Below, piece after piece: positions 593-9,731 of a stretch of 64,000 nt of DNA (the stretch's first letter is position 1; each line of letters begins with the position of its first letter). The position numbers were made by a program, and so were the translations under genes. Location: NCBI GenBank assembly GCA_000092065.1, contig CP000601.1, one strand, 5' to 3'. Origin of the DNA: Ostreococcus lucimarinus. Lineage: Eukaryota. Under the pieces are notes generated by a model. It did no database searches and was not told the origin of the DNA. It worked only from the letters and a program-made list of their open reading frames with translations.

Positions 593-2317
593 CTAATCTC
601 GCGTTCGGAAGCGACGCACAAAATTCGATCCCATCCTTCGAATTCTATGACTGAGACTGAAAGAGCGCGTGCTTAAAACGACTGCGGTAGAATCAGGCGC
701 GTTCACGTCCGTTGAAACCGCAAAGGCGGTGGCAGATCGGTTCACCGTCGTCTCGGCTCGTCCACTGCTGATGAGCTCAACGTTGTTCGCCGCATACTGC
801 CAATCTAATTCGTCCTTGATCGAATCGAGCGCTTCTCGCGAAATATTTGCCGCAGCAAATTTAGATGACAGGCTGTTTGGCGCGCGTTTTGTCGCCGGCG
901 CGGCTGACAGCGCTCTTTTCATGAAGTTAGCGTCGAAATCGAGAACGCTTCTCGGCGCGTTCGCGCGCGGTTCCCCAGACGAACCGAGCGAGACAATCCA
1001 AGGATGCTCTAACATTTCTTCCGGCTTCAATCTCGCGCTCGGGTCGAGAACGAGGCATTTGCGGATGAAATCGGCGCCGTGTTCGCTGACGAATGCAGGG
1101 ATCTTGAACGAACCTTGGAGAATCATATCGTACGCTTGCTGTCGACTCGTCGACTGAAACGGCGGAAACCCGACGACGAGCTCAAACGCCAAAGCGCCGA
1201 TGGCCCATAAATCCACAGCCTTGCCGTACCCAGCGCGATTCAATCGGAGGTATCGTTCTCGAAACTCTTTATCGCAGCGTACAACCTCCGGCGCCATGTA
1301 ATCCGTCGTTCCCAAACGCCCGAGCGGTTTGAACCACTCCAAATGTAACGCAAAGCCGAAATCCGTCAGCTTCGCTCTGCCGTCATCGGTGAGTACGACA
1401 TTTTCAGGCTTGATATCTCGGTGTATGACGTTCATCGCGTGCATGTGCGCGACGGCTTTGATGACCCATTTCATAACTCCCGTCACTGCTCGGCTTTCAC
1501 TAAACTTTCCTCCAACTCGCGCCAAAGCGTTGAAAACGTCGCCCCGGTTGTGAAGCTCGTGTATTAAATAATAGTTCCCAGTCGAAGTGTCGATGAACGA
1601 ACCAAAAAATCCCACGATGGCCGAGTGTTCCATGCTATGATGCACCGCAATTTCGTGCGCAATCTGTTCGTACACGTGCAGTTTCAACTTTGCCTTGATG
1701 TAGCACTTCAGCGCCACTTCAAAGTTCATCCTGCGATAAAACGCCTTGTATACCACGGAATATCGCCCGCGACCGATGACGTTGACGAGCTGAAAATCCT
1801 CCAGGCGAAATCTCCACCCGAACATCGACGCATTCAACACGTCCTCTGGTTTCGCCATTCCCAGCGGGTCGGGATCTGCGTCCCATTCCTCCGGGACCGC
1901 CCCCAACGCGCTCCTAAACGTCCCGCTCTGCGAGCTCGACGCGCTCGTCTCCGACAACCGTCCCGACCTCGTCGCATCGTCGTCCCGGTCGTCGTCCGCA
2001 TCGAGCGAACTCCCTATCCACGTTCCATCCTCTTTTCCATTCGCTCTCAGCTCACTCGGCGTCAACCTCCGACTCGCGCGCGCGTCGCCGATCAGCGTCG
2101 CCGTCCAGGCGAGCTTTGCGCCCTCCGACGCCTCCTGTCCCGCCTGCCCGAGACCCTCGCGAGAGCTCTGCGCTGACGATCGCGCGGATAGCGCGCTCAT
2201 CGGACTCGTCGCGCGGTCGTCCGCGCCCTTTCCCGCGTCCGTCGGCGTCGATTCCGTCGTCGTGTCGAAACTGCGGCGCGGCGTCCGAACGAGCGCGGCG
2301 TCGTCGTCGAGCGACAT
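593..2317 (-). CDS. Ser/Thr protein kinase (Aurora/CAMK-like catalytic domain, low-complexity N-terminus)
   Basis: The glycine loop reads GRGRYSVVYKA and is followed by VALK, HRDIKPENVVL, DFG, APE and DLWAIGALAFELVVGFPPF. The ATG at 2317 was confirmed in the sequence. Confidence 0.75.
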   Translation of the reverse strand: MSLDDDAALVRTPRRSFDTTTESTPTDAGKGADDRATSPMSALSARSSAQSSREGLGQAGQEASEGAKLAWTATLIGDARASRRLTPSELRANGKEDGTWIGSSLDADDDRDDDATRSGRLSETSASSSQSGTFRSALGAVPEEWDADPDPLGMAKPEDVLNASMFGWRFRLEDFQLVNVIGRGRYSVVYKAFYRRMNFEVALKCYIKAKLKLHVYEQIAHEIAVHHSMEHSAIVGFFGSFIDTSTGNYYLIHELHNRGDVFNALARVGGKFSESRAVTGVMKWVIKAVAHMHAMNVIHRDIKPENVVLTDDGRAKLTDFGFALHLEWFKPLGRLGTTDYMAPEVVRCDKEFRERYLRLNRAGYGKAVDLWAIGALAFELVVGFPPFQSTSRQQAYDMILQGSFKIPAFVSEHGADFIRKCLVLDPSARLKPEEMLEHPWIVSLGSSGEPRANAPRSVLDFDANFMKRALSAAPATKRAPNSLSSKFAAANISREALDSIKDELDWQYAANNVELISSGRAETTVNRSATAFAVSTDVNAPDSTAVVLSTRSFSLSHRIRRMGSNFVRRFRTRD

Positions 2318-2491: not shown

Positions 2492-4603
2492 TCACATCCG
2501 TGATGCGGCGTCGAGAGCTCGAATGGCGTCTCGACTGGCGATGGCATCTTCGATTTCGACCTCGACGTCGACGATGCGGGCGTAGAAGTCGCGGAAGACG
2601 CGGGCGTTTCGCTCGGCTTCCGCCACCGGATCTTCGTTGAGAGGGAAGGTGTCAAAGTAGAGCACGCCGGCGTAGGATATGCGACGTAGCGCGCGGACTA
2701 ATTCCATGGCGGCGTGAGGATGGACGGAGGCGAACATCAAACCGTCTTCGGCGCCGAGACGGGTGTGACCGTCGCCGAGTTGGACGCCGAACAGAGCGTT
2801 TCTCGAAGCCGCCATCGCGATGGACTGGGCTGGATTCTCGCCCGCGGCGAGCGCGTGGCCGACGTCCAGTGTCAGGCCGAAGTTGGGCTCGCCCACGGCG
2901 TCGACGAGTAGGAGTGCGGCACCTGTGGTGGGGATGAAGCTGAAACGGCTCTTTTCGTCCGTCGGCTTGAATTCGACGCTCAACTTGAGCGAGCGACACT
3001 CTTCGCTCGAGGCCACTGCTTTGTAACCGACAATCATGTCCTCCCACGCCGTGGCGTAATCCGCTTGGAGATTGTAATCGTATCCATCGTAGCGAGGCCA
3101 TATGACGACTTCGTCTGCGTCGAGTGCGGTCGCAGTCGCGCACGCCTTGCGTGCCAAAGTCGCCGCGTGTTCGCGAATCACGCCATCGGGATTCGAGAAC
3201 GCGCCCAATCGAAACGGCTCCTCGGGAAATCGCACGCATACGGCGCCAGGGCGCAACTTCGCGGCAAGAATCTTGTCTCGCAATTCCACTGCCGCGAGCT
3301 CGTTGCCGTCTGGTCCGATGAAATGTTCGGGGTAGTTGAGAAACACCGAATGCACGCCCTGAACGCGTCCCATGCGCTTTATGAGGTTGAAGACTTCCGG
3401 AACGTCCGGTTCGGCATCCGTGAATAAGTCTGCGCGAGATTTCATGCTATTCAATCTACTGGCAAATCGAAGTGCCTCGATCGCCGCCTCACTGGACGAC
3501 GAAGACGACGAGATAGGGGACGTTCGGCACGGATCTGAAACGCCAAGAAATTCATCCACGTCGCTCCGAAATGGAAGGCTTGGCATCGCACCCAACTTCG
3601 TCACCGCCAAAGCCCCCGCGGCGCTGGCGAACTTCATGGCGTCGCGCTCGTTTTTATTTTCAGCCATCGCCACCGCGAACGCGGCGCGAAACGCATCACC
3701 AGCCGCGGTGGCGTCCACTTCTTTGGCGCCGGCCGGAAGTTCCATCGATTCGACTCTCGTGACGTCTTCGCCTCTCACGAGCAACGATCCTCGACTCCCC
3801 AGCGTGCACAGAACGGCGACGCGCGACGTTCCTGCGACGATTCTCGCCGCCTTAACGACCGCTTCGTCCCCAGAAGAAACCTCCTCCACGCGCATTCCCG
3901 CCATTCCCGCGAGTTCGCTCTCGTTCGGCGCGACGTAATCCACGAGCGCCAACAACGCCTCATCCGCCGCGTGAAACGAGCCTCCCGCGTCCAGCACGAT
4001 CGTTCGCACACCGATTTCCCTCGCAACCGTCGCCGCTATCACGTTCACGCGTTCCGGCACCTCCCGCTGCAGCATCACCGTCTTCGCGCCTCGCAGCGCC
4101 TCGCGAAACTCGCTCGCCAGCGCCTCGTCGTCCGCGTTCCATCCGAGCGCGTTCGCCCCCCCCACGACCACCGCGCTCGGCGATCCATCGTCCGTCAGCA
4201 TCACGAACCCCATTCCCGTCTCGATTCCGCTCCCTCGCGCCATCGTGACGCTCCCGGACACATCCGTCTCTCGCCGCAGCGCGCGTCGCAGCGTCGTCCC
4301 CGCCTCGTCCTCCCCGAATCGTCCCACGAACGCCGCCTTCCCGCCGCGCTCGCACGTCAATCGCGACGCCGCGACCGCTTGATTCGCTCCCTTCCCTCCG
4401 CACGCGCGCTCGACGCGCGCCGCCGTCGCCGCGCGCGTTTCTCCGCGGCGCGGGACCGATGTTCCGACGCGCGCGATGACGTCGGCGTTCACGCTCCCCA
4501 CGACGGCGATCGACGCGCGGTCGGCGCGCGCGAGCGCGACGCGCGCGAGCGCGGTCAGCGCGGCGCCGAGCGCGAGGCGCCGCGCGCGACGCGCGCGACG
4601 CAT
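2492..4603 (-). CDS. Bifunctional protein: N-terminal pfkB/ribokinase-family sugar kinase fused to a C-terminal xylose-isomerase-like TIM-barrel sugar isomerase
   Basis: The N-terminal half carries pfkB motifs (VGSVNADV, GGKGANQAVAASRL, DTTAAGDAFRAAF). The C-terminal half resembles xylose or L-rhamnose isomerase (SVEFKPTDE...DVGH...VQLGDGH...EDGLMF). It is a single continuous ORF with an ATG at 4603. Confidence 0.65.
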   Translation of the reverse strand: MRRARRARRLALGAALTALARVALARADRASIAVVGSVNADVIARVGTSVPRRGETRAATAARVERACGGKGANQAVAASRLTCERGGKAAFVGRFGEDEAGTTLRRALRRETDVSGSVTMARGSGIETGMGFVMLTDDGSPSAVVVGGANALGWNADDEALASEFREALRGAKTVMLQREVPERVNVIAATVAREIGVRTIVLDAGGSFHAADEALLALVDYVAPNESELAGMAGMRVEEVSSGDEAVVKAARIVAGTSRVAVLCTLGSRGSLLVRGEDVTRVESMELPAGAKEVDATAAGDAFRAAFAVAMAENKNERDAMKFASAAGALAVTKLGAMPSLPFRSDVDEFLGVSDPCRTSPISSSSSSSEAAIEALRFASRLNSMKSRADLFTDAEPDVPEVFNLIKRMGRVQGVHSVFLNYPEHFIGPDGNELAAVELRDKILAAKLRPGAVCVRFPEEPFRLGAFSNPDGVIREHAATLARKACATATALDADEVVIWPRYDGYDYNLQADYATAWEDMIVGYKAVASSEECRSLKLSVEFKPTDEKSRFSFIPTTGAALLLVDAVGEPNFGLTLDVGHALAAGENPAQSIAMAASRNALFGVQLGDGHTRLGAEDGLMFASVHPHAAMELVRALRRISYAGVLYFDTFPLNEDPVAEAERNARVFRDFYARIVDVEVEIEDAIASRDAIRALDAASRM

Positions 4604-4763
4604 CGCGACGACGAATGCGGCGAGCGGATTGGAATGGAATCGAATCGACGCCGCAGAGCGCGGCGTGCGGCGGCTTCGACGACGCTCGAGCGGCGACGAC
4701 GACGAACGCGACGCGACGCGCGGTCGGGCGAGCGACGGGGCGACGGCGAGGACGAGGCGCGCG

Positions 4764-5567
4764 ATGAAGGCGTCGCGAATCGCGGATTTGGAGGCGCGAA
4801 TGCGCGGGCGCGCTTCGCGCGAGACGGCGTCGAGCGCGGCGACGACGACGGCGCGGGACGCGGACGCGGATCCGACGACGTCGTATTACGCGCCGTCGAT
4901 CGGGGAGGACGAGGAGACGTTCGCGGGCGCGCGGGCGACGGCGCGCGAGGAGGCGGCGGCGCGGAGGGCGTACGCGGAGGCGTACGCGCGGCGAATGCTG
5001 GCGACGCGTCGACGAGGGACGAGCGCGGACGCGGAGGACGATTTGCGAGCGAAGCTGAGCGCGGATAAAGCGCTGGTGCTCGTGAATGATTGGGAGAGGG
5101 TGGTGGACGCGGGGGAGGCGCGAGCGCGGGAGCGGGAGAAGCGCTTCGCCGAGGCGCGCAGAGCGATGATGAGCAAAACGCGATTAAAGAGGGAAGGATT
5201 GTACGGATTGAGGCCGGAACAGTGTACGTGGAGCGCGTTTTCGAAATTGCGCGGGCTGTGGGAAAAGTACGCGCGGGCGCTGGTGAAGGACGCGAAGCGC
5301 GGCGAGGCTGAGGCGCGACTGACGCGCGGGCTCGACTTACACGGTTGCGTGCTCAAAGTCGTGCGTCACGCGCGCGCGCCCGATCTCGTCGGTCGCGAAG
5401 GTGTCGTTGCTTTTATCTCGTCGCGATGTCTCTGGCTCGTCGCGCGCAAGCGCGAGAAACCGATCAAAGTGCTCATCGACGGCGGCACGTTTGAGTTTGT
5501 TTTGGACGAGCGCGTCGTGCGTCTTTCGAGCGAGGACGTGTTGGCGTCCGCGCCGCGTCCGTCGTAG
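4764..5567 (+). CDS. POP4: RNase P/MRP protein subunit p29 (Rpp29/POP4)
   Basis: The C-terminal Rpp29 domain reads LDLHGCVLKVVRHARAPDLVGREGVVAFISSRCLWLV...KVLIDGGTFEFVLD. The track ORF begins at 4476, but that upstream part is Arg-rich and overlaps the neighbouring gene. The first internal ATG, at 4764, is the likely start. Confidence 0.5.
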   Translation: MKASRIADLEARMRGRASRETASSAATTTARDADADPTTSYYAPSIGEDEETFAGARATAREEAAARRAYAEAYARRMLATRRRGTSADAEDDLRAKLSADKALVLVNDWERVVDAGEARAREREKRFAEARRAMMSKTRLKREGLYGLRPEQCTWSAFSKLRGLWEKYARALVKDAKRGEAEARLTRGLDLHGCVLKVVRHARAPDLVGREGVVAFISSRCLWLVARKREKPIKVLIDGGTFEFVLDERVVRLSSEDVLASAPRPS

Positions 5568-5680: not shown

Positions 5681-7024
5681 ATGGCGTCGGCGGCGGATCG
5701 CATCGCCGCACTTCGCGCGAAAGTCGTGAGCGAGCGAGAAAAAGCGCGCGAGACCTCGCAAATCGCGTCCTCGTCCGCGCGGTCGTCCACAGAAGCGGAA
5801 ACGGTCGCGGATGCTTCCATAGATTTTGAACGAAAACTCGCCGAGTTTCGCGCCGACGCCGACGCGAAGCTGCGCGAGGCCGTCGCGCGAGCGGTCGAAA
5901 AAGAACAAGCGAAGACAGCGGCGATCGTGGAAGCGATGAACGAGGGAAGCGGGGCGACGGAAGGCGCGGATGGAGACGATGCGCGGGCACTGCGGCAAAG
6001 GGTGGCGGCGTTGACGGAGCGCGCGAGCGAGGCGGAACGAATGCGGGGGATGGATCTAGCGAGGAATGCGTCGAGGGAGGACGAACACAAGAAAGAGATC
6101 GCGACGTTGAGGAGTGAGCGCGACAAGATGGCGACGGAATTGAAGAAATTGAGGGCACATTTGTTGGCGCTGGAGGACGAAGAGGACGAGGTGGCGGAGG
6201 AACAGGAACGAGAAATAGACGAGGCGAGAGAGGAGGAAAGGCGAGAATACGAACGGCGTTTAAGCGACTTGAAGAAGAACATGAGTGGAAACGATGCCGA
6301 GGTCACGAGGTTGCGGGAGGTGATAAAGGCTCGAGACGAAGAGGTGGAAAATTTACAAAAGGCGCTCGGGGCATATTACGCTGAAATCGAGAGCGCGGAC
6401 GCGCAGCGCATTGAGTCGGCGAATCTACGACAAAAGCTAGCCGCACTCACCTCGCAGGCGACTGCTGATAGAGCAGCATGCATGGAAGCCAAAGAAAAGG
6501 CGAAGGAAGCGGAGGAAAGGTTGACTAAGTTTGAGGCTCACTTGAAAATCGCCAAGGAGGAATGCATCAAGGCCACGAGCGACGCGAGTAAGCTCAGGAA
6601 AGCGCTCCATCACGCCCTTCAAAAGAGCAGCGATATGATGGTAGAGAGTGAGAAATTGTTGGATAAGCGCATAGTGAGCGATTTATTCATCGCTTATCTC
6701 GAACGCGAACGAGCGGAGGACGTGCTCGATTTGCTCGCAAAAATGCTCGGCTTCACCGACAAACAAAAGGCACGGATGGAAGCTCTAAAGAGACGACAGA
6801 AAAAGCGAGGTGTGCTCGGAACGATCGCGCGCGCGCCCGTGAGCATTGCAGCTGGTGCGATAGGCGTCGCACTCGAAGTTACGGGCGCTACGGGCGAGAA
6901 CAAACCAGTACCAGTCGCAGACTTGTGGATTTCGTTTCTCGAGCAAAACGCAGCCAACGACGAAGAAGTAGAGAACAAAATTCCGTCGTCAAGCGAGCTC
7001 ATCTCAGCCGCGCGCGAATTGTAG
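5681..7024 (+). CDS. Long coiled-coil protein with a GRIP-like C-terminal segment (golgin-like)
   Basis: About 400 aa of heptad-rich E/K/R/A sequence. The C-terminus (IVSDLFIAYLERERAEDVLDLLAKMLGFTDKQK) resembles the GRIP domain, with the conserved Tyr present. Confidence 0.45.
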   Translation: MASAADRIAALRAKVVSEREKARETSQIASSSARSSTEAETVADASIDFERKLAEFRADADAKLREAVARAVEKEQAKTAAIVEAMNEGSGATEGADGDDARALRQRVAALTERASEAERMRGMDLARNASREDEHKKEIATLRSERDKMATELKKLRAHLLALEDEEDEVAEEQEREIDEAREEERREYERRLSDLKKNMSGNDAEVTRLREVIKARDEEVENLQKALGAYYAEIESADAQRIESANLRQKLAALTSQATADRAACMEAKEKAKEAEERLTKFEAHLKIAKEECIKATSDASKLRKALHHALQKSSDMMVESEKLLDKRIVSDLFIAYLERERAEDVLDLLAKMLGFTDKQKARMEALKRRQKKRGVLGTIARAPVSIAAGAIGVALEVTGATGENKPVPVADLWISFLEQNAANDEEVENKIPSSSELISAAREL

Positions 7025-7071: not shown

Positions 7072-8277
7072 CTAGAGACGCGATTGCGCAACTTGCCACT
7101 GCTTCATCGCCTGTCTAACACCTAAATCGAGCATAATCTCCTCGCTCCCGCCCGGGATCGCATAAGCGCGAACATCGCGGTAGAGCCGCTCGATCTTTTC
7201 ACCTTGACCTCCCCGGACGTAAGAGGCCCCACCAAACACCTGAGCCGCTTCTCTGGCGCAAAATTCAAACACTTTGGTGCTCTGCACTTTGGCCAACGCG
7301 GTGATACCCGCAAGCGCTTTCGAAGATTCTTCCTTCGTCATGGTATTCATTTGATAGGTGATGGTCTCTAGCAAGTAATGCGTCGCCTCGACTTGTCGAA
7401 TCATCTCAGCGAGTTTGTGTCGAATCACTGGGTGCTCGATGAGTTTCTTACCAAACGTTCTTCGACGGTGCGCGTACTTGAACGATTCCTCATAGCACAC
7501 GCGTGCAAACCTATTCGCCTGAATCACAAACCCCCAACGTTCGTGATTGAAGTTGTGCATGATATACTTGAAGCCTTCGTTTTCTTTGCCGATCAAATTC
7601 TCGACTGGCACTTTCACGTCTTCAAAGGTGATGAACGTGGTGCCGCTCGCCCAAACGCCCATGCAGTCCATGCGGCGACAATCCACGCCAGGCATCGAAC
7701 GCTCGATGACTAGGAGCGAAATCCCACCCATGCCCGGCCCACCCGTGCGCACCGCGACGGTGAAATAATCTGCCCAAATCCCATTCGTGATCCATTTCTT
7801 CTCCCCCGTCACTCGATAAAACTTCCCGCTCGGATCCAACTTTGCCTCGCACCGAATGTTCGCCACGTCGCTGCCGGCGTACGGCTCCGTGATCGCCAGA
7901 CATATGATCCCTTCCCCTCGCAAGCACGGAGCTCCTACCCTTCGTCGCAAATCTTCGCTCCCAAAGTTCAAAACTGGTGGCAAACCGATGTGTATGCCCT
8001 CCAGTAGTCCCCAAAGTACGCCGCCGCTCCCGCACCGCGCGAATTCGTCAAAGACGATCAACTCATGAAAGTAATCAAAATGCTCCGGTTCCTCGCACTC
8101 GGGGACCAAATCCTTCGGCCACGGTTTTCCAACCACCGCGGGTAATATCCCAGCCGCGTACGTCGCTCTGTACACTTCTGGAGGTATGGTTTTCGTCTCG
8201 TCCCACTCGTGCACGTACGGCGCGATGTCCCGCTCCACGAACGCTCGCACCTTGTCTCGAAACTTCGCGTGCGACAT
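7072..8277 (-). CDS. Acyl-CoA dehydrogenase family protein
   Basis: ACAD fold motifs are present: GSDVANI, KKWITNG and the C-terminal FGGASYVRGGQGEKIERLYRDVRAYAIPGGSEEIM. The ATG at 8277 was confirmed. Confidence 0.8.
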   Translation of the reverse strand: MSHAKFRDKVRAFVERDIAPYVHEWDETKTIPPEVYRATYAAGILPAVVGKPWPKDLVPECEEPEHFDYFHELIVFDEFARCGSGGVLWGLLEGIHIGLPPVLNFGSEDLRRRVGAPCLRGEGIICLAITEPYAGSDVANIRCEAKLDPSGKFYRVTGEKKWITNGIWADYFTVAVRTGGPGMGGISLLVIERSMPGVDCRRMDCMGVWASGTTFITFEDVKVPVENLIGKENEGFKYIMHNFNHERWGFVIQANRFARVCYEESFKYAHRRRTFGKKLIEHPVIRHKLAEMIRQVEATHYLLETITYQMNTMTKEESSKALAGITALAKVQSTKVFEFCAREAAQVFGGASYVRGGQGEKIERLYRDVRAYAIPGGSEEIMLDLGVRQAMKQWQVAQSRL

Positions 8278-8654
8278 CGTGTAATACGGCGAATTAAACG
8301 TCGTGTACCACGACGGCTGTGATGACCATCGATTCGTACCGTCGTCAGTCCTCCGCGTCGCGTCGTCCGCGCGTCGCGTCGCGTCGATTCATTCGTTCCG
8401 TCGGGTTAGTAACCGTCCTCGGAATTCCATCGATTCGCGGCAGTCTCGTCGCGCGCGTCCGCGTCGTCCGCGCGCCCGATCGCGTCGCGTCGCGTCGCAT
8501 CGCACGCACGTCGCCGAAAGGCACGCCCTCGCCGAACGGCTCGCGCGTCGTCATGATTGAACGATTCGATCGATTGTGCCGTCGGCTTGAAGTGACGCGA
8601 CGCGACGACACACGCCGACGCCGACGCGGACGCGGACGCGAGGCGCGAGCACCG

Positions 8655-9731
8655 ATGGCGAGGCGCGCGCAGTGGCGGTCGTTCGCGCACGCGAAGTGCG
8701 ACGTCGACGACGCCCTCGCGACGACGTTCGCGCTCGCGAAATCGGTCGAGGTGGCGGTGCCGCGAGGACGGCGCGACGACGAGGACGCGATCGCGCGCGC
8801 GCTCGACGACGACGCGAATGCGATCGTCGGGACACATTTCGAGGCGGAGATGTCGATCGCGGACGCGCTGGACCCGCACTTCGTGCACGAACACGTGCGA
8901 CGGTGGACGGCGGCGAAGACGAAGACGCGCGACGCGGGCGCGACGTTTGGGCTGACGACGATCGACGCCGAGGTAGATTCGGACGATTGTTTTTGCGTGA
9001 CGCCGAAGGGACGATTCGTTGCGTCGCTCATGGCGGACGCAAAGGAAAGTTTGGGGATGCAAACGACGGAGGACGCGCGCGGGAAGGCGCTCGCGAGCGT
9101 GAATTTGACGCGAGAAGAGTTCAAGGTGGGGAATTGGTTTCACGATCGAATCGGGGCGTGTGCGCGGGCGTTTGAGCAGCGAACGGGAAAGTCAAAGGTA
9201 TTGTGCGCGTACATGGTGAGTGGTGCGCACGAGGAGGTCAAGTTTCCACGCACAGTGACGGCGGCGAGGCGCGCAGAGAGCGTCAAGACTTCGTCGCAAG
9301 TTCGCGTCAATTTGGTGAGTCAAAGTGCCGTGTTACTCGCGTCTGCGAGTCCACCGATGAGAGGCGAGGAAAAGGACATCGATGTTGATGATTTAGATCG
9401 GATTTTAGAATTTTGTGGGCGCATAAGTCTAGGAGACGCCTACATGGAGGGCGCCGAGGACGACCGAGGCGACATCGTCGAGACGCGTCGCTGGCGAGGT
9501 TTGATGTTGTATCCAGATACTCGACGCGTGATTGATATCGCGCGAAGGATCGTGAACGATGGGCTCGCACCGTGGGCCGTCGTCACTGTTTGGGCTTTCG
9601 CACACATGCCGAGCGAACTCACAGGTGAGCCGAGAAAGAAAATTGAGCGCGACTCATGCGCGCCAAAGATGGGCGCCGTGTTCACCATCGTCTTGTACCC
9701 CGACGACAAGTATTTGAAATTCGTAGCGTAG
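8655..9731 (+). CDS. Hypothetical protein with no recognisable domain
   Basis: The second half of ORF 8319..9731 is non-repetitive, while the first 112 codons are Arg-rich. The internal ATG at 8655 (MARRAQWRSFAHAKCD) is the likely start. Confidence 0.3.
   Translation: MARRAQWRSFAHAKCDVDDALATTFALAKSVEVAVPRGRRDDEDAIARALDDDANAIVGTHFEAEMSIADALDPHFVHEHVRRWTAAKTKTRDAGATFGLTTIDAEVDSDDCFCVTPKGRFVASLMADAKESLGMQTTEDARGKALASVNLTREEFKVGNWFHDRIGACARAFEQRTGKSKVLCAYMVSGAHEEVKFPRTVTAARRAESVKTSSQVRVNLVSQSAVLLASASPPMRGEEKDIDVDDLDRILEFCGRISLGDAYMEGAEDDRGDIVETRRWRGLMLYPDTRRVIDIARRIVNDGLAPWAVVTVWAFAHMPSELTGEPRKKIERDSCAPKMGAVFTIVLYPDDKYLKFVA

Follow-up and report, generated by a model that had tools for sequence, protein, structure and literature searches.

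A ribokinase joined to an unnamed xylose-isomerase-fold domain in a single gene of Ostreococcus lucimarinus and other algae

The ribokinase of land plants, RBSK, is a stand-alone plastid enzyme that supplies ribose-5-phosphate to plastid metabolism (PMC12589546). In other bacterial settings, genes for ribokinase and ribose-5-phosphate isomerase are clustered, as in the ribK/ribA clusters of Oenococcus (PMC5131533). The Pectobacterium apiose operon, which encodes the published apiose route, comprises an ATP-binding cassette (ABC) transporter, a split transketolase, an FGGY kinase, the isomerase and a SorC-type regulator, and has no pfkB kinase. Here we describe a gene of Ostreococcus lucimarinus CCE9901 in which a pfkB-family ribokinase and a barrel of the xylose isomerase (XI) fold share one reading frame. 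It lies on the minus strand at positions 2492..4603 of a 64,000-nucleotide stretch of contig CP000601.1 (assembly GCA_000092065.1), referred to hereafter as the window. Both folds are intact, as are the catalytic residues of the kinase and most of those of the isomerase. We conclude that the gene probably combines a plant-type ribokinase with a metal-dependent aldose-ketose isomerase, and that the two would carry out consecutive steps in the salvage of ribose or a ribose-like sugar.

The gene, its product and its distribution

The gene is one uninterrupted open reading frame (ORF) of 703 amino acids in a single exon. Pfam assigns residues 30-344 to PfkB (E 1e-40) and residues 467-671 to AP_endonuc_2, the 'xylose isomerase-like TIM barrel' (E 4.5e-16). 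A preliminary description, made from the letters of the window, had proposed such a single-ORF fusion of kinase and isomerase, and the domains and the absence of an internal stop bear it out. The limits that it gave for the two halves (residues ~30-330 and ~380-703) were also close. Alignment with ribokinases covers residues 29-354, and the barrel starts at residue 379, with strand beta1 of an AlphaFold2 model. The parts of the gene are as follows.

2492..4603, minus strand: whole coding sequence, 703 codons plus stop; ATG start, TGA/TAA-type stop at 2492-2494, no internal stop
4523..4600, minus strand: N-terminal extension, residues 2-27 (RRARRARRLALGAALTALARVALARA), with a basic start, a hydrophobic core and small residues; one predicted helix (per-residue model confidence, pLDDT, 67-85)
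3545..4516, minus strand: ribokinase (pfkB) domain, residues 30-353, from Pfam PfkB, the best Protein Data Bank match (6ilr) and Foldseek
3470..3544, minus strand: inter-domain linker, residues 354-378, serine-rich (SPISSSSSSSE); pLDDT <50 at residues 361-369
2495..3469, minus strand: (beta/alpha)8 barrel of the xylose isomerase fold, residues 379-703, belonging to an unnamed subfamily here called ISO

The deposited O. lucimarinus model (XP_001420964.1 / XP_001422930.1, 'predicted protein, partial', 356 amino acids) consists of the kinase half and lacks the isomerase half. Residues 1-356 of the ORF product are 100% identical to XP_001420964.1, and the segment 2492-3544 (minus strand) is not covered by the NCBI reference protein. 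The same 356-residue sequence is filed under two accession pairs and two contigs. The fusion is nevertheless a real single protein. It is not a read-through artefact, because orthologues span the junction, the syntenic locus of O. tauri is a single called gene (699 amino acids, both Pfam domains), and the transcriptome-derived MMETSP proteins P0017, P0074 and P0091 have both domains within one ORF. Fifteen homologues, later 53, aligned end to end over the kinase/isomerase junction, and environmental contigs of up to 237 kb carry full-length copies with 99.6% identity to the ORF product. The reference annotation of O. lucimarinus, which ends at residue 356, needs correction.

Among 5.8 billion proteins, 170 matched at E<=1e-10, and nearly all of the best 120 carry PF00294 together with PF01261. 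More than 100 protein clusters share the fusion; a search for the same architecture in other algae had been proposed with the preliminary description. Named sources include green algae (O. tauri, Chloropicon primus, Chlorella, Micractinium, Raphidocelis, Scenedesmus, Tetradesmus, Monoraphidium, Chlamydomonas species and Edaphochlamys), diatoms (Thalassiosira, Cyclotella), a pelagophyte, a chrysophyte and dinoflagellates (Effrenium, Alexandrium). In an exhaustive HMMER search, every longer or shorter homologue of the fusion had the order PfkB then ISO or was a fragment of such a fusion, and no other fusion partner of the ISO domain occurred among these longer matches. The fusion had been thought undescribed. 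For the literature this holds, in that full-text searches found no paper discussing it or the name 'ribokinase xylose isomerase', but the architecture is already catalogued in sequence databases. NCBI applies that very name to proteins of Chloropicon, Raphidocelis, Scenedesmus and Monoraphidium, and in UniProt the O. tauri orthologue is entered as 'Ribokinase'.

AlphaFold2 modelled the whole protein with a mean pLDDT of 91.5, as two confident domains and a linker disordered at residues 361-369; the linker differs in length and sequence between homologues. The predicted TM score (pTM) was 0.65, with no confident inter-domain interface. In such a model the two domains could appear to have been fused by chance, with no metabolic coupling. 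This is very improbable, given that the fusion has been kept across distant algal lineages and that in many bacterial phyla the same two families have independently come together in operons, as described below.

Catalytic residues of the two halves

Residues 29-354 align with solved ribokinases, the top match being Arabidopsis RBSK (6ilr, 176.6 bits over residues 32-353); E. coli RbsK scored 140 bits. A Foldseek search with the full model returned ribokinases as its top 49 of 49 matches, at target-normalised TM scores of 0.76-0.92. The scores on the ribokinase equivalog models are under the cut-offs (TIGR02152, 197.5 against 299.65 bits; NF008353, 180.5 against 341 bits). This shortfall is expected for a eukaryotic orthologue, both models having been built on bacterial proteins, but it keeps the ribose specificity a prediction. 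Three motifs mark the active site.

4379..4399, minus strand: GGKGANQ, residues 69-75; ribose contacts G41/G42/K43/N46 in E. coli RbsK numbering
3914..3925, minus strand: NXXE, N227-E230; magnesium/phosphate site of pfkB kinases
3689..3715, minus strand: DATAAGDAF, residues 297-305; anion hole and catalytic base D303 (RbsK D255)

Residues N39, D41, G69, G70, K71, N74 and E181 correspond to the RbsK ribose contacts N14, D16, G41, G42, K43, N46 and E143, and N227, E230 and D303 to N187, E190 and D255. The anion hole and catalytic base are formed by A300-A301-G302-D303 (GAGD, with D255, in E. coli). Among 103 algal sequences this RbsK-type set is invariant or nearly so, the N46 position being N in 90 and T in 13; NXXE is invariant in all 103 and in 54 of 55 bacterial kinases encoded beside ISO genes. 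The motifs first quoted for the protein were mostly correct (GGKGANQAV at residue 69, FKPTDE at 545, DVGH at 580, VQLGDGH at 607, EDGLMF at 619). One, DTTAAGDAFRAAF, was misquoted, and the true sequence is DATAAGDAFRAAF (residue 297). The N-terminal half is thus identified as a ribokinase, and conservation of the contact residues strongly suggests specificity for ribose.

The kinase half also appears to be the host's plant-type enzyme and not a transferred bacterial partner. By BLAST and phmmer alike it matches Arabidopsis RBSK best (180 and 176.6 bits), as compared with 129 bits or less for the bacterial ISO-partner kinases. In a crude neighbour-joining tree without support values, Arabidopsis RBSK falls within the algal domains, and these are separate from bacterial RbsK and the ISO-partner kinases; this grouping is only suggestive.

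A signal-peptide-like or anchor-like N-terminus is unexpected on a ribokinase. A hydrophobic segment was present in 84 of 98 full-length homologues in which 15 or more residues precede the first kinase strand; the extension has a median length of 36 amino acids and a median 11-residue Kyte-Doolittle score of 2.66. The segment stands directly before the kinase fold both in green algae and in algae with secondary plastids. In diatoms and chrysophytes (in Cyclotella, MLLSLSLLLLLALTPSSHA followed by SILIAGSLN) it adjoins the fold, and the transit peptide of a bipartite plastid signal would have no space. In several species the segment is followed by basic residues, as might be expected of a membrane anchor on an enzyme in the cytosol. 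For the Arg/Ala-rich N-terminus of Ostreococcus three roles are conceivable: signal peptide, membrane anchor and green-algal transit peptide. Behind such an N-terminus the algal enzyme possibly works outside the plastid stroma, the site of the land-plant ribokinase.

The C-terminal domain was modelled alone because the full-length Foldseek search had returned ribokinases only. The model of residues 368-703 (pLDDT 90.1, pTM 0.89) is a large (beta/alpha)8 barrel with ~310 alignable residues, and all of its best 50 Foldseek matches were apiose, rhamnose or xylose isomerases. The structural comparison figure was 38.9 for 3ktc, 34.6 for the L-rhamnose isomerase of P. stutzeri, 34.5 for class I XI, 31.9 for class II XI, 28.6 for the L-rhamnose isomerase of B. 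halodurans, 28 or less for ketose 3-epimerases, IolI and YgbM, and 20-23 for endonuclease IV. The closest solved sequence is again 3ktc (4.3e-30), a Pectobacterium atrosepticum protein that UniProt names D-apiose isomerase, with class I XIs at ~1e-11 to 1e-14. Sequence and fold therefore agree with the xylose-isomerase-like identity first proposed for this half. They place it nearer the isomerases than the epimerase or endonuclease IV branches. Membership of the AP endonuclease IV branch, which the preliminary description had named as an example of a finding that would overturn its proposal, was rejected, endonuclease IV being the closest neighbour neither in structure nor in sequence.

A phmmer search with the C-terminal domain found 836 representative clusters (more than 800 at 50% identity) from many bacterial phyla and many algae, the bacteria including Erwinia, Pantoea, Priestia, Oenococcus, Staphylococcus equorum and gut Lachnospiraceae. 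The best non-fusion relatives are stand-alone proteins of 309-330 amino acids with 35-43% identity to the C-terminal domain, and share with it FA(S/T)RLNS, NYPEH, E(F/Y)KP, LDxxH, ENPA, LNDG, DDGL and YFDTFP. For reference we used the S. rubiginosus XI sequence (identical to 1mnz over 388 residues), aligned by hhalign to the family profile with a probability of 99.3%, and counted conservation in 109 algal and 56 bacterial ISO sequences. The motifs lie at the following positions.

3446..3457, minus strand: RLNS (R383/N385/S386), end of strand beta1; replaces XI G14/W16/T17; subfamily signature
3323..3337, minus strand: NYPEH (N423/P425/H427), after strand beta2; invariant
3230..3232, minus strand: R458, end of strand beta3; XI N92/L93, apiose isomerase E82
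2954..2974, minus strand: EFKPTDE, residues 544-550, with E544 and K546 (hhalign, 99.3%)
2855..2866, minus strand: DVGH, residues 580-583, with D580 and H583
2741..2782, minus strand: QLGDGHTRLGAEDG, residues 608-621, flexible metal-site loop; pLDDT <50 at 614-621
2642..2659, minus strand: YFDTFP, residues 649-654, containing D651

Much of the XI catalytic apparatus is retained. Invariant are E544 (XI E181, metal ligand), K546 (K183, catalytic), D580 (E217, bridging metal ligand), H583 (H220) and D651 (D287, metal ligand). E619, the counterpart of D255, is E in algae and D in bacteria. The D245 position is occupied by Q608, which is Q or H in the family, with an invariant D611 three residues further; the D257 position is G621, a G, and the adjoining D620 is invariant in algae. 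Binding of two metals by the domain is plausible on these residues. H427 is a candidate equivalent of the ring-opening His54 of XI by strand position and spacing, an equivalence that neither MAFFT nor any other alignment produced. In the structural model, R383, N423, R458, W502, E544, D580, D611 and D651 lie at or next to the C-terminal ends of barrel strands 1-8, the catalytic face.

The substrate pocket is altered in a characteristic manner. R383, N385 and R458 are invariant in 109 of 109 algal and 55 of 56 bacterial ISO sequences. R383 stands in place of a glycine (G14 in XI, G12 in apiose isomerase) and N385 in place of a tryptophan (W16 and W14, respectively). Of the aromatic residues that sandwich the sugar in XI, F94 and W137 have their counterparts in F459 and W502, and W16 has become N385.

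Residue 610, in the metal-site loop (2741-2782, minus strand), is Asn in all 56 bacterial ISO proteins, in XI (N247 of the LND motif by the metal site) and in apiose isomerase. In algae the position is N in 56 sequences, G in 47 (including Ostreococcus) and S in 5.

None of the named isomerases fits the subfamily. D-xylose isomerase (EC 5.3.1.5) was rejected, since the xylA equivalog scores are far under the cut-offs (61.3 against 447 and 21.5 against 533 bits) and W16 is replaced. L-rhamnose isomerase (EC 5.3.1.14) was rejected on a RhaI equivalog score of 26.5 bits against a cut-off of 531. D-apiose isomerase was rejected on ~25% identity, on R/N/R at the positions of G12/W14/E82, on an operon without transketolase and on a kinase of the pfkB instead of the FGGY family. 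The source names of the stand-alone ISO proteins are generic. A Commensalibacter ISO entry named 'D-apiose isomerase' was taken as an automated transfer because its signature residues and operon differ. From these alignments we take ISO to be an uncharacterised subfamily of the xylose isomerase fold, sister to D-apiose isomerase.

Bacterial operons and the order of the two reactions

The genomic context of stand-alone ISO genes was examined by scanning one genome per bacterial species with a five-sequence ISO alignment. This gave at least 574 loci in many phyla, of which 80 were kept; their neighbouring ORFs were clustered and representatives annotated. A pfkB kinase was found within the 8-kb flanks of 58 of the 80 loci by local tblastn with the algal kinase domain. 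In ~25 loci, mostly from Firmicutes, the genes are ISO, binding protein, ABC ATPase, permease, pfkB kinase and DeoR regulator, ISO being the first gene of the Firmicutes operons. In many other loci, as in Alphaproteobacteria and Thermomicrobiales, pfkB follows ISO immediately. Verrucomicrobia loci contain RpiR, SIS, binding protein, ATPase, permease, Amidohydro_2, ISO, short-chain dehydrogenase/reductase (SDR), pfkB and sometimes RbsD/FucU. The partner kinases score 200-296 bits on TIGR02152 and keep D16, K43, N46, E143 and D255. The algal fusion is a Rosetta-stone counterpart of this conserved bacterial gene pair.

In the Verrucomicrobia variant (loci L011, L017, L018, L026 and L050), the SIS-domain protein is small and the Amidohydro_2 protein lactonase-like; from this operon, the pathway built on the isomerase-kinase pair seems to be more elaborate there. 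Alphaproteobacterial islands carry genes for a UxaA-type dehydratase, FAA hydrolase, SDR, aldo-keto reductase (AKR), Amidohydro_2 and FGGY. These accessory genes were rejected as a clue to the substrate, as they are mostly divergently oriented and identified none.

In the mechanism that we propose, the N-terminal domain would transfer the gamma-phosphate of ATP to the 5-hydroxyl of a furanose, with D303 as base and NXXE as magnesium site, the sugar being contacted by GGKGANQ, N39, D41 and E181. The C-terminal domain would catalyse a bimetal 1,2-shift isomerization using K546, H583, E544, D580, D611, E619/D620 and D651, and the subfamily-specific R383 and R458 would hold the phosphate of a sugar phosphate. 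The reaction would be of the type ribose-5-phosphate to ribulose-5-phosphate, leading into the pentose-phosphate or Calvin cycle.

That the kinase acts first, and the isomerase on its phosphorylated product, is a tentative preference, held at slightly less than even confidence. We favour this order because of the two invariant arginines and the change of W to N in the pocket, because the aldofuranose site of the kinase is unmodified, and because the ketose kinases that partner XI, RhaI and ApiI belong to the FGGY family. With no more than two enzymes in the minimal bacterial operon, their product must be a central metabolite. Searches of the 80 loci by tblastn with E. coli RbsD, RpiB and AlsE gave no matches, and no transketolase was present among the neighbouring genes. 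ISO operons without RpiB, AlsE and transketolase count for this order, and the clustering of ribokinase with ribose-5-phosphate isomerase genes provides a precedent (PMC5131533). The same tblastn result disfavours the classical allose route.

The opposite order was that of the preliminary description, in which the C-terminal domain converts a free aldose (rhamnose, xylose, fucose or similar) to a ketose, which the N-terminal domain then phosphorylates. Its order and substrates are doubtful, and we consider this reading quite unlikely. It can appeal to the closest solved or characterised relatives (3ktc, P. stutzeri L-RhaI and the XIs), which act on free aldoses, to the apiose operon, where the isomerase feeds a kinase, and to the first place of ISO in Firmicutes operons. 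However, none of the ribose (aldofuranose) contacts has been lost from the kinase, which groups with a proven plant ribokinase, whereas xylulose, rhamnulose and apulose kinases belong to the FGGY family, as is directly seen in the apiose operon. The hydrophobic W16 of neutral-sugar isomerases has moreover given way to Asn, accompanied by two invariant arginines, and the equivalog scores for XI (61 against 447) and RhaI (26.5 against 531) are far below the cut-offs.

Alternatively, the isomerase might act first and yield the aldose of the kinase, converting a free ketose or epimeric sugar such as D-ribulose to D-ribose, which would be trapped as ribose-5-phosphate. The unmodified ribokinase site, a two-enzyme operon needing nothing further, the use of unphosphorylated sugars by all characterised relatives, and the SDR, AKR and FGGY genes of the alphaproteobacterial islands, which are typical of polyol and pentulose metabolism, are all consistent with this scheme. 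It is still unlikely, as it leaves the invariant R383 and R458 unexplained and the transporter binding proteins resemble binders of aldopyranoses (allose/ribose-type). Free ribulose, moreover, is not known as an abundant nutrient or algal metabolite.

RbsD/FucU was detected by Pfam in only four of the 80 loci, and ISO comes first in its operon, like rbsD in E. coli rbsDACBK. Xylose isomerases, furthermore, catalyse ring opening. These points would suit a C-terminal domain that is a ring-opening or anomer-handling accessory, an analogue of RbsD delivering the furanose to ribokinase. We give this scheme little credence: K546 (XI K183) and most of the bimetal ligands, superfluous for mutarotation, are strictly conserved, and ISO occurs together with RbsD/FucU in Verrucomicrobia.

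The imported sugar was approached through the binding proteins of the ISO operons, which score 117-186 bits with E. coli AlsB as compared with 93-136 bits with RbsB. At the positions that we take, from the 2DRI literature, to be the ligand contacts of RbsB, they differ as follows.

RbsB N13, R141, N190 and D215: kept in ISO-operon binding proteins
RbsB F16 and F164: W, as in AlsB
RbsB R90: Asp in 29 of 30; Glu in AlsB
RbsB Q235: Ser or Glu

At positions 89, 90 and 235 they are unlike both AlsB and RbsB.

Several points weigh against the kinase-first scheme and its substrate. The sugar imported by these bacteria would be ribose- or allose-like and is probably not plain ribose. The N14 position is His in 28 of 55 bacterial partner kinases and Asn in all algal fusion kinases, a split that may reflect differing sugar specificities within the bacterial family. 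The closest characterised relatives of the C-terminal domain, the apiose, rhamnose and xylose isomerases, all take free sugars as substrates and precede a kinase in their pathways. R383 and R458 have been placed relative to the substrate from strand ends and the alignment, not from coordinates, and their proximity to a phosphate is accordingly conjectural. The metal site is rearranged relative to XI, with Q/H and G at the positions of the ligands D245 and D257. Algae already have conventional ribose-5-phosphate isomerases, and a second one needs a rationale. The hydrophobic N-terminal segment is compatible with more than one compartment, and literature searches found no paper on the ISO subfamily or on the biochemistry of any member. 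Searches on apiose/apulose enzymes, allulose/psicose kinase, D-ribose isomerase and hamamelose catabolism likewise found nothing on the fusion or on ISO.

A bolder form of the kinase-first reading, in which the family of the C-terminal domain is a previously unrecognised XI-fold enzyme acting on the phosphorylated product of a ribokinase-like kinase, is a candidate, albeit a rather unlikely one. It may, as one possibility, be a third, non-homologous ribose-5-phosphate (or allose-6-phosphate) isomerase. A more speculative version invokes rearrangement of the carbon skeleton, with 5-phosphorylation of the branched sugar hamamelose and direct conversion of hamamelose-5-phosphate to fructose-6-phosphate. 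This would explain both the sufficiency of two enzymes and a binding pocket that seems larger than a ribose pocket. Land plants are known for hamamelose, and their lack of the ISO domain weighs against it.

Surroundings of the gene and comparison with known systems

A gene-cluster explanation was set aside, since the neighbours in the window are unrelated to sugar metabolism; their order is kept in O. tauri. They are listed here.

593-2317, minus strand: downstream neighbour, a 574-amino-acid Ser/Thr protein kinase (Pkinase, 4.6e-56) whose long N-terminal region is of low complexity
4476-5567, plus strand: putative p29-like subunit of RNase P/MRP, a weak match (PF01868, E 0.001, below cut-off)
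5681-7024: GRAB-domain coiled-coil protein, between the p29-like ORF and Rpp40
7072-8277, minus strand: acyl-CoA dehydrogenase, also between these two
8319-9731, plus strand: Rpp40, a putative subunit of RNase P/MRP (PF08584, 4.3e-12), within 5 kb of the p29-like ORF

Between positions 2000 and 6000 of the window, where GC content is 63-69%, both strands contain many overlapping Arg/Ala/Gly-rich ORFs of 150-365 amino acids, for example 3971-5068 (plus strand) and 2652-3239 (minus strand). These look like GC-driven shadow ORFs and not genes.

In many algae, then, ribokinase is permanently tied to a second catalytic domain from a family that is common in bacteria and has no assigned function. 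The main interest lies less in the fusion itself than in this tie between ribokinase and an abundant, unnamed, arginine-bearing subfamily of the xylose isomerase fold. Together, the fusion and the conserved operon narrow the substrate of the orphan family to a ribose-like sugar or its phosphate. Should ISO turn out to be a phosphosugar isomerase of a new kind, pentose salvage in marine phytoplankton would gain a step, and a gene present in thousands of bacterial sugar operons would receive a name.

Among described systems, Arabidopsis RBSK (At1g17160, 6ilr) and bacterial RbsK (1rkd/1gqt) resemble the N-terminal domain over residues 32-353 (36-38% identity), with the same fold (TM scores of 0.85-0.92) and identical ribose, magnesium/phosphate and catalytic-base residues. 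The algal protein differs from them by a hydrophobic N-terminal extension of ~30 residues and a C-terminal isomerase domain of 350 residues. Class I XI of S. rubiginosus (1mnz/1xib) shares the bimetal hydride-shift fold with the C-terminal domain at ~23% identity; E181, K183, E217 (as Asp), H220, D255 (as Glu) and D287 are kept, and the C-terminal helical extension of XI is absent. D-apiose isomerase (P. atrosepticum, 3ktc) is ~25% identical, its D229 and D240 corresponding to Q or H and to G in ISO. The L-rhamnose isomerase of P. stutzeri (2hcv), an enzyme that also interconverts D-allose and D-psicose, is 17-18% identical. The E. coli rbsDACBKR and alsBACEK plus rpiB systems follow the same logic as the bacterial ISO operons, with binding protein, ATPase, permease, kinase and repressor, and their transporters and kinases are homologous to those of ISO operons. 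In place of RbsD, AlsE and RpiB, however, the ISO operons have the gene for the xylose-isomerase-fold protein.

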